A DNA stretch of 64,000 nt from Escherichia coli (GTDB lineage: Bacteria > Pseudomonadota > Gammaproteobacteria > Enterobacterales > Enterobacteriaceae): NCBI RefSeq assembly GCF_030013205.1, contig NZ_CP122648.1. The stretch is one strand, 5' to 3'. Below, piece by piece: positions 5,421 through 6,658 of this stretch. Position 1 is the first letter of the stretch, and every line of letters starts with the position of its first letter. The notes beneath the pieces are model-generated. The model searched no databases. It saw nothing but the letters and a program-made list of their open reading frames with translations, and was not told the DNA's origin. Both the position numbers and the translations under genes were made by a program.

Positions 5421-5755
5421 CGGGGATCTTAGGCTTGGGTATTGGTTTGTTGCATATCATGAAAGTTAAGGGGTTCTGAAATGTTGTTGAGAATAACTAC
5501 CTCAGCTACGACGAGGTACATGCTTTTGACAGAGAAATGACAGAGAAATGACTGTCTGTCGTAAAGCTGATCGTGAATGCGGAGATATTCAGAACAAGTA
5601 TGCTGTAATTAATGCTGATAACCGGTTGAAATAGCATATTAATGTAGCTGTTGTTCCTCTGACGTATCAACCCCCCTCAGAGTGATTGACATCAGATAGA
5701 AATATTAGCATCATTATTTCATCAAATAACTCTCATTAACAATGGAGATAATAAA

Positions 5756-6313
5756 ATGAAAAAACTGTCAGTTCTTTCAGCCATCATATTATCAGTAGCA
5801 AGCGGTTCCGTGCTGGCTGACAACCATTCGTTTTCTGTCGGTTATGCACAGAGTAAAATTCAGAACTTCAAGAATATTAGAGGGGTAAACCTGCAGTACA
5901 GGTATGAATGGGACTCCCCGGTTAGTATTATGGGCAGTTTCTCCTGGATGAAAGGGGATGGTAATCAGGAATATCATTCATATGGCGATTCAATTAAAAA
6001 CCAGGTTGATGCAAAATATTATTCCTTACTGACTGGCCCCGTATGGCGCATTAACGATTATATGTCACTGTATGCGGCTGGCGGCGTGGCGCATGTTAAA
6101 GCTGATGGTAAAACAGCATGGACAAACGTTGATGGTTATTTCGCCAGAGAAAATATTTCGAAAAAATCCACATCTTTTGCTTATGCTGCCGGGGTAATGA
6201 TCAATCCGACAAGTAATATTACAATTAATGCCGGATATGAAGGAACCAGAGCAAAACTTGGCGATAATTATTCTATTAATGGATTCAATATTGGCGTGGG
6301 TTATCGCTTTTAA
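5756..6313 (+). CDS. Ail/Lom/PagC-family outer-membrane beta-barrel protein
   Basis: 185-aa ORF with signal peptide (MKKLSVLSAIILSVASGSVLA) and C-terminal ...GVGYRF; AT-rich promoter region upstream. Confidence 0.85.
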   Translation: MKKLSVLSAIILSVASGSVLADNHSFSVGYAQSKIQNFKNIRGVNLQYRYEWDSPVSIMGSFSWMKGDGNQEYHSYGDSIKNQVDAKYYSLLTGPVWRINDYMSLYAAGGVAHVKADGKTAWTNVDGYFARENISKKSTSFAYAAGVMINPTSNITINAGYEGTRAKLGDNYSINGFNIGVGYRF

Positions 6314-6320
6314 TAAAGTA

Positions 6321-6354
6321 GAACGAACATAATAGCGTTCATATCTGTTTTTTT
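6321..6354 (+). terminator. intrinsic terminator after the Ail/Lom gene
   Basis: Short hairpin GAACG..CGTTC followed by T-run (ctgttttttt). Confidence 0.45.
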
Positions 6355-6658
6355 ACTTAACCAAGCGGTACATATATGTACCGCTTGTCTGTAATAAATC
6401 AATACCGCCTGTAACGGTACGAATGACTATTGTCATGAACGCAATCATGTTTCTGTTGTTGCCGAACATCGTTCTGTGCAGAGGCTTTTGGTGTGCCTTC
6501 CATCAGCCAGCGTAATGATTCTCAGGCAATTTTGTATCGTTTCGGTTAACTCATACTGATGCGTCGGTGGCGGGGCATCCGAACGATCGCAGTCTGACGA
6601 TGGTTGATTTATTTTGTTGCACAGGGGCGATCACCGGGCAGGTACCGGCGGTGGGCTC

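Follow-up and report, generated by a model that had tools for sequence, protein, structure and literature searches.

We analyzed a 64,000-nucleotide stretch of the Escherichia coli contig NZ_CP122648.1 (hereinafter the window) around a gene coding for an outer-membrane β-barrel protein of the Ail/Lom family (ail), which is flanked upstream by an 11-bp tandem duplication and downstream by a perfect palindrome. The window represents the pheV island of porcine enterotoxigenic/edema disease E. coli (ETEC/EDEC): the stretch is 100% identical to the chromosomes of such strains, e.g., O139:H1 W13-16, and 99.9% identical to that of UMNF18. We found the whole region to be ordinary mosaic island DNA and not a regulatory switch, with the two motifs likely to be unrelated by-products of the history of its segments. 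In order, these segments are the insertion sequence ISEc20, the tail of a small open reading frame (ORF), a remnant of a cdiA-CT toxin module delimited by the VENN motif, the ail unit and the 3′ remnant of a relaxase gene. The junctions between them map to ~5422–5425, 5486, 5664–5673 and 6398, with none at 5528–5549, where the duplication lies. The features central to this account are the following:

5423–5479, plus strand: 3′ tail of a small hydrophobic ORF ending in GILGLGIGLLHIMKVKGF and a stop (from the translation, and from homology to E. coli PapRG-04-4 starting at 5422)
5486–5664, plus strand: orphan cdiA-CT pseudogene remnant, starting at the VENN codons GTTGAGAATAAC (5486–5497)
5527–5552, plus strand: 11-bp tandem duplication, 2.4 copies of TGACAGAGAAA (Tandem Repeats Finder and allele comparison)
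5686–5714, plus strand: sigma-70 promoter-like site, TTGACA-17 nt-CATCAT (best match of the scan, 10/12 positions)
5744–5747, plus strand: Shine-Dalgarno sequence GGAG, 8 nt before the ATG (read from the sequence, invariant across alleles)
5756–6313, plus strand: Ail/Lom-family outer-membrane β-barrel gene, 185 aa, WP_000736772.1
6318–6354, plus strand: intrinsic terminator T1, with a bulged 11-bp A/U-rich stem at 6318–6347 and a run of seven T (T7) at 6348–6354 (RNAalifold consensus)
6362–6387, no strand assigned: stem-loop T2, the perfect 26-bp palindrome CAAGCGGTACATA/TATGTACCGCTTG, with an 11-bp stem and a 4-nt loop
6399–6533, minus strand: 3′ remnant of a MOBP relaxase gene (traI/nikB type), its last 44 codons plus the stop (6399–6401), with an internal stop

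The original prediction had named the gene as a member of the Ail/Lom family, and profile searches agree: Pfam PF06316 matches residues 5–185 with 82.8 bits against a cut-off of 23, and the closest solved structure is the Yersinia Ail (3QRA, E = 1.8e-23), with the lambda Lom also recovered (E = 5e-19). The promoter lies inside the segment common to the plasmid copies of the gene, which runs from 5673 onward, and is kept in both chromosomal and plasmid alleles. The terminator predicted after the gene is likewise borne out, with its bulged 11-bp stem and T7 run, and was extended by RNAalifold on five alleles. T1 is a genuine ail-sense intrinsic terminator: its stem-loop is directly followed by a U-run on the ail-sense strand, and the three one-sided changes it has undergone are all G·U-compatible on the plus strand alone. 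Its plus-strand energies are −5.5 kcal/mol in the window, −9.1 kcal/mol in PapRG-04-4 and −13.1 kcal/mol in the plasmid allele, while on the minus strand the plasmid allele reaches −1.2 kcal/mol and the chromosomal alleles −6.3 to −6.7 kcal/mol (in the window, −5.5 on the plus strand versus −6.3 on the minus strand). Thus, the plus strand is far stronger in the plasmid allele, whereas in the chromosomal alleles the two strands are alike and the plus strand is not clearly favored. Taken together, ail would form a self-contained unit with its own sigma-70 promoter, Shine-Dalgarno sequence, ORF and terminator.

The upstream motif had been described as GACAGAGAAAT occurring twice in tandem at 5528–5549. 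This is indeed seen in the sequence, and Tandem Repeats Finder reports an array at 5527–5552 with a period of 11, 2.4 copies and a 100% match, the top score among the 14 short arrays of the window. It is followed by GACTGTCTGTC, which contains two overlapping CTGTC; the inverted copy of GACAG pointed out there is present, but is trivial as a signal, a 5-bp inverted match being expected by chance. What matters is where the array sits. Positions 5486–5497 read GTT GAG AAT AAC, i.e., VENN, and it is at these codons that homology to E. coli C5 begins. Downstream of them the single-copy alleles translate as VENNYLSYDEVHAFDREMTVCRKADRECGDIQNKYAVINADNRLK followed by a stop, and the intact CdiA of plasmid NZ_CP010214 reads VENNYLSYDEAHAFDREMTACRKAGGDCGDIQNKYAVISAENRQKLHIDVAADPLT, a translation colinear with the remnant at 77.8% nucleotide identity. 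The fragment thus has the form of a VENN-initiated orphan cdiA-CT module. No cognate cdiI accompanies it, as the frame stops after 45 codons and the homology ends at 5664, giving way to ail-specific DNA. With a nonsense codon, a truncation and, in the two-copy lineage, a frameshift besides, it is a remnant and not a functional module.

The array falls on the codons D-R-E-M of this remnant, where it shifts the frame to DREMTEK and a stop, ~137 bp upstream of the −35 hexamer of ail. A single copy is found in five loci, namely PapRG-04-4, C5 and the metagenome contigs L012, L016 and L017; two copies occur in the window, in 22 near-identical porcine ETEC genomes and in the metagenome contig L015. 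Across the site, the one-copy allele runs colinear with intact cdiA; it reads TGAC-AGAGAAA-TGAC, i.e., two 4-bp TGAC microhomologies 11 bp apart. While the anatomy, the homologies and the distribution of alleles are demonstrated directly, the mechanism is one that we infer: replication slippage between the two TGAC copies would give exactly the array seen. It would have frameshifted an already dead ORF in a fragment that happens to sit upstream of ail. Being inside a pseudogene, the duplication is neutral in effect. Further, the plasmid copies of ail lack the entire repeat stretch, sharing sequence with the window only from 5673, and yet keep the promoter; the ail unit can therefore do without the repeat region. 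Hence, we hold it as very probable that the repeat is a slippage duplication in a dead toxin-gene fragment with no role in the control of ail. Further observations concern the same remnant. In L016, a 6-bp deletion (equivalent to ~5628–5633) drops its premature TAG, changing CGGTTGAAATAGCAT to CGGTTGCAT and locally reopening the frame. A terminator-like match on the minus strand (5556–5539) is an artefact of the duplication's own sequence, and a minus-strand ORF of 54 aa at 5506–5670 was set aside as being without support.

The downstream motif had been reported as a perfect 24-bp palindrome, AAGCGGTACATATATGTACCGCTT, at 6363–6386; the perfect symmetry is real, though a further pair brings it to 26 bp. 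No other perfect inverted repeat of the window is as long, and this one occurs there once; 60 first-order Markov simulations of the window gave no 13-nt arms (simulated range 8–12). As a stem-loop with an 11-bp stem, the palindrome reaches −16.5 kcal/mol on either strand and is a stable, G+C-containing structure. Among 5,426 complete E. coli genomes it is found in only 25, all with this ail unit; with one copy in the window and a single type of locus in those genomes, it does not belong to a dispersed family like the repetitive extragenic palindromic sequences or bacterial interspersed mosaic elements (REP/BIME). Both motifs are beyond chance as sequence events, though it does not follow from this that they are functional sites. 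The palindrome begins 7 nt past the T-run of T1 and ends 11 nt from the relaxase stop codon, 11 bp inside ail-specific DNA and beside the junction with the plasmid backbone, and so lies in the ~85-bp gap between the convergent stop codons of ail and the relaxase gene.

The tandem repeat is absent from homologous loci. Comparison of the alleles of the palindrome showed that its stem is kept:

Chromosomal allele: CAAGCGGTACATA / TATGTACCGCTTG
Plasmid allele: CAACCGATACAT-T-ATGTATCGGTTG, with one G-C pair changed to C-G and one G-C pair changed to A-U
L016 allele: one A changed to G, giving a G·U pair
L019 allele (Ail 86% identical): CAACCGGTACATT-[15 nt]-AATGTATCGGTTG, with one G·U pair

Over these four alleles the stem has survived compensatory changes on both arms in two cases, a G·U intermediate in two others and, in one allele, a 15-nt loop insertion. 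In alignment A6, 66/66 cells pair, as against 19–45% when the partner column is slid, and in two pairs both partners have changed. Each of the two single-sided changes results in a G·U pair on the ail-sense strand and in C·A on the opposite one. Conversely, the features of an operator for a dimeric protein, i.e., a fixed half-site sequence and a fixed spacing, are absent: the chromosomal and plasmid half-sites disagree at two positions, and the spacing at the center is 0, 1 or 15+ nt depending on the allele. The insertion in L019 keeps the stem and abolishes the dyad spacing, which argues against an operator of this kind. Thus, the pattern of changes favors a palindrome behaving as a stem-loop over a sequence-specific dyad operator.

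On the right flank, the relaxase remnant is 71% identical to TraI of the IncI1 plasmid pRHB40-C22_2 (tblastn, E = 1e-16) and has nucleotide matches to the traI 3′ ends of many plasmids, while the metagenome contig L018 has contiguous traI sequence directly convergent with ail. The remnant points to a plasmid origin of the ail segment; together with the arrangement in L018, it places the palindrome in a ~85-bp gap where, in a plasmid ancestor, two genes converged. The ail unit would have traveled with the last ~135 bp of the convergent plasmid relaxase gene. While stem conservation is seen directly, the role of the stem is one that we infer from its position and alleles: it would most likely serve, in the RNA, as a stable hairpin at the 3′ end, either backing up a weak T1 against read-through from ail or capping and insulating the transcripts of the convergent ail/relaxase pair, a proposal to which we give about even odds. 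In the chromosome, the hairpin may be largely a relic, the relaxase gene there being dead, and the perfect symmetry of this copy could be kept by hairpin-templated (quasipalindrome) correction.

Two sets of observations on the ends of the ail segment may be recorded here. On its left, the cdiA-CT homology stops at 5664 in the chromosome, and in the plasmids the homology to an IS256-family transposase stops exactly at the point from which they resemble the window, 5673 (positions 3999–4001 of the plasmid pUMNK88_Hly, L004); the junctions in these two unrelated contexts are 8 bp apart. On its right, pUMNK88_Hly carries the traI 3′ end twice (4720–4790 and 5500–5560), as a diverged 66-bp remnant right after ail and as the real end of the gene, with vapBC in between, which suggests that vapBC arrived by recombination that duplicated the relaxase 3′ end.

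We place the joint explanation, namely a repeat produced by slippage, a self-contained ail unit and a palindrome acting as an RNA-level hairpin, at a probability of roughly 0.55. Several observations weigh against it. First, neither strand has a U-tract after the palindrome (tails UCUGUAAU on plus and GUUAAGUA on minus), the T7 run being located upstream; the palindrome thus falls outside the canonical definition of an intrinsic terminator and was not listed by the terminator scan. Second, T1 should end most ail transcripts before the palindrome is reached. Third, 8 of 500 shuffles reach the observed score, making this control suggestive only, and the alleles are just four and related. Fourth, the strand preference amounts to two G·U events, which would agree by chance about 1 in 4 times, and is weak. 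Fifth, compensatory changes in palindromes can arise via template switching without selection (PMC5941160; PMC7202029). As for the repeat, the slippage mechanism rests on microhomology and not on its observation.

The strongest alternative takes up the template-switching objection and holds that the palindrome is functionless, a quasipalindrome kept perfect by hairpin-templated template switching in neutral intergenic DNA. Such correction has been invoked to account for the over-conservation of perfect inverted repeats in Proteobacteria (PMC5941160; PMC7202029), and the lack of a U-tract on either strand, together with the dead relaxase gene adjoining it in the chromosome, fits this proposal. 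So does the decay of the element to CCAGGTACATATTACCGTG in E. coli GCA_910665035.1, whose Ail is 79% identical. However, the stem outlasts both a 15-nt loop insertion and ~14% protein divergence in L019, and the G·U intermediates occur on the ail-sense strand alone. Further, strong hairpins occur at the equivalent place elsewhere, suggesting that one is needed there: after traI, an IncI1 plasmid devoid of ail carries another palindrome, AAAACAATATATATTGTTTT, at the corresponding position, and the Kluyvera Ail homologues and the 79%-identical E. coli homologue have unrelated strong hairpins after their stop codons. On balance, we regard a neutral palindrome as possible but doubtful. The homologue in GCA_910665035.1 (L020, 1108–1293) is of separate note in having a PerC-family gene upstream of it, and in having lost T1 and its T-run, with a new hairpin devoid of a U-tract, GTGAAGGAGAGA...TCTCTCCTTCAC.

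A different possibility is that the motifs are features of recombination, with the repeat being the target-site footprint of a transposon and the palindrome the insertion site of ail cargo behind the relaxase gene. The original prediction had raised a scar or cargo boundary, and the neighborhood is indeed mosaic with several junctions; the palindrome lies 11 bp from the start of the homology to ail-less plasmids at the traI stop codon, and on the left the ail segment shared with the plasmids starts at 5673, no more than 8 bp from the junctions seen in two different contexts. However, the motifs themselves are not at breakpoints. The repeat is not a target-site duplication or excision footprint: the breakpoints lie elsewhere (~5422, 5486 and 5664–5673), the one-copy sequence is continuous and matches intact cdiA, and the TGAC microhomology accounts for the duplication without any element. 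The palindrome is conserved as a structure and not as a breakpoint; it occurs at no other locus in the 5,426 genomes and has no associated recombinase gene, and there are no terminal inverted repeats around the ail segment. Integron attC sites are imperfect, with extrahelical bases; by inspection, the left ACTTAAC fits the RYYYAAC core, but the right-hand GTTRRRY core is absent. We therefore consider this account improbable.

Ail-clade genes were also encountered directly downstream of cdiA and arrays of orphan toxin/immunity genes, in the same orientation (comparing L002, L003, L021, L022 and L023 with L024 and L025). E. coli PapRG-04-4 and C5 have this arrangement, as do Leclercia (64% identity) and a metagenome-assembled genome (67%), while Lelliottia has the same locus of ail with LysR and SDR (short-chain dehydrogenase/reductase) genes without cdi genes. 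The recurrence is notable and could, judging from gene order, reflect a functional coupling of an Ail-like outer-membrane protein with contact-dependent inhibition (CDI). However, the Lelliottia ail–LysR locus suggests that cdi islands were simply inserted beside a resident gene, and the recurrence is probably to be explained by such insertion. A bolder proposal, that the stem-loop is an undescribed, selected and mobile 3′ boundary element or insulator associated with ail, marking cargo behind an IncI-type relaxase gene, or else that there is a functional cdi–ail link, appears to us quite unlikely.

The least tenable alternative, which the original prediction had suggested, is that ail is controlled through regulator binding at one or both motifs, by PhoP/PhoQ, temperature or another regulator. 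Dyad symmetry is typical of operators, and genes of the Ail/PagC family are regulated in other species. Nevertheless, relatives have a single copy of the repeat, which is located within a pseudogene and missing from plasmid copies that keep the promoter, while the palindrome lies downstream of both the gene and its terminator, with half-sites that change between alleles and a center expanded by 15 nt in L019 with the stem kept. We searched for the PhoP box as a direct repeat (T/G)GTTTA-N5-(T/G)GTTTA near the −35 region and found none with ≤2 mismatches in 5422–5760; a single match with three mismatches at 5613 is background (178 such matches in the window versus ~133 expected). Similarly, a permissive Rfam scan of positions 1–12000 placed only the tRNA-Phe above threshold, with no thermometer or other cis-regulatory RNA; a match to the OppA thermometer, which lies inside coding sequence, reached 18.7 bits where the gathering score is 290. 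The PhoP version of this reading is thus largely refuted, and we judge regulator binding of any kind very improbable. A LexA box was also discounted by inspection, the center of the palindrome, ACATATATGT, being the inverse of the CTGT-N8-ACAG arrangement. A second hairpin at 6402–6420 (minus strand) was rejected too, since changes in the plasmid allele disrupt its pairing and it falls within the coding remnant of the relaxase.

Further features of the island frame this neighborhood:

3969–5425, minus strand: ISEc20 of the IS110 family (Pfam PF01548 and PF02371; RefSeq "ISEc20"; other E. coli copies 99.7% identical)
7089–8692: sulfatase-family transferase gene, frameshifted (Pfam and the RefSeq annotation of W13-16)
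8789–10051, minus strand: P4-type integrase (Pfam and W13-16 annotation)
10252–10324, minus strand: tRNA-Phe, pheV (Rfam and W13-16 annotation)

The extent of ISEc20 was set by other E. coli copies, which match the window from 3969 to 5425 at 99.7%, and homology to PapRG-04-4, which like C5 is without this insertion sequence, picks up again at 5422, next to its end. Elements of the IS110 family encode a guide ("bridge") RNA in the non-coding stretch upstream of the recombinase gene; here, the DEDD transposase occupies 3998–5194, leaving a 231-bp non-coding stretch upstream of the gene (5195–5425, minus strand), to which no Rfam family matched. The small hydrophobic ORF tail beyond it, which also occurs in the CDI locus of PapRG-04-4, may represent the terminal part of an orphan immunity gene. 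Past the relaxase remnant, positions 6534–6710 are common to PapRG-04-4 and C5, and the 48-aa hypothetical protein annotated by RefSeq at 6600–6746 is without support. The sulfatase-family (phosphoethanolamine-transferase-like) gene is split into two ORFs, 7089–7664 and 7703–8692, and RefSeq marks it as frameshifted.

A conspicuous pair of motifs around a virulence-type gene is thus resolved into an indel from slippage in a toxin pseudogene and an intergenic hairpin, and not a regulatory architecture. While the significance of this is small beyond annotation, the 11-bp indel is a handy lineage marker for the pheV island of porcine ETEC/EDEC, the relaxase remnant records the arrival of ail on the chromosome from a conjugative-plasmid context, and the conserved hairpin without a U-tract is a modest candidate for how plasmids insulate convergent cargo and backbone genes.

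Turning to known systems, the Ail protein resembles the Yersinia Ail, lambda Lom, OmpX and PagC/Rck in being a 185-aa Ail_Lom protein with a signal peptide and a C-terminal GYRF, its best matches among solved structures being Ail, Lom and OmpX. It differs from these systems in having no DNA similarity to any phage record and no PhoP box: a comparison with phages had been proposed, and a search of a phage collection with ail and its flanks gave no match and no lambda-lom-like context. Its nearest relatives at the species level are chromosomal genes of Kluyvera, Leclercia and Lelliottia (58–67% identity). A protein scan of genome contigs recovered just two loci, both from Kluyvera (58–59%), with downstream hairpins that are not homologous to the palindrome, and a literature search for this gene in UMNF18 returned nothing.

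The upstream remnant has its counterpart in the orphan cdiA-CT fragments reported by Poole et al. (2011; PMC3150448), which open with VENN, are devoid of start signals and have been broken up by mobile elements. Like them, it has been interrupted by mobile DNA, and its homology to other loci starts exactly at VENN; in both PapRG-04-4 and C5, it comes after CdiA and the arrays of orphan toxin/immunity genes. It differs in retaining only ~60 codons, with a nonsense mutation, no cognate cdiI and the 11-bp frameshift; within the parts covered, namely positions ~1–12,000 of the window and 13.5 kb of annotated W13-16 sequence, no cdiBA genes were seen, the check not extending to the remainder of the window. 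The duplication within it conforms to slipped-strand duplication at microhomologies, with an ancestral 4-bp TGAC bounding the unit and an exact 2.4-copy array as the product, and there is nothing distinctive about it.

On the 3′ side, T1 is a classical Rho-independent terminator with its A-tract, stem and U-tract, whereas the palindrome departs from this class in having no 3′ U-tract, a reversed composition (T-rich 5′ and A-rich 3′) and perfect symmetry. It shares with the inverted repeats attributed to template switching (PMC5941160) the properties of being short, perfect, intergenic and kept (near-)perfect across diverged alleles, but differs from them in that its arms have changed in sequence with the symmetry kept and that it has a large loop insertion. 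In being stable, placed between convergent stop codons and conserved through compensatory changes, it is like the stem-loops that stabilize 3′ ends between convergent genes.

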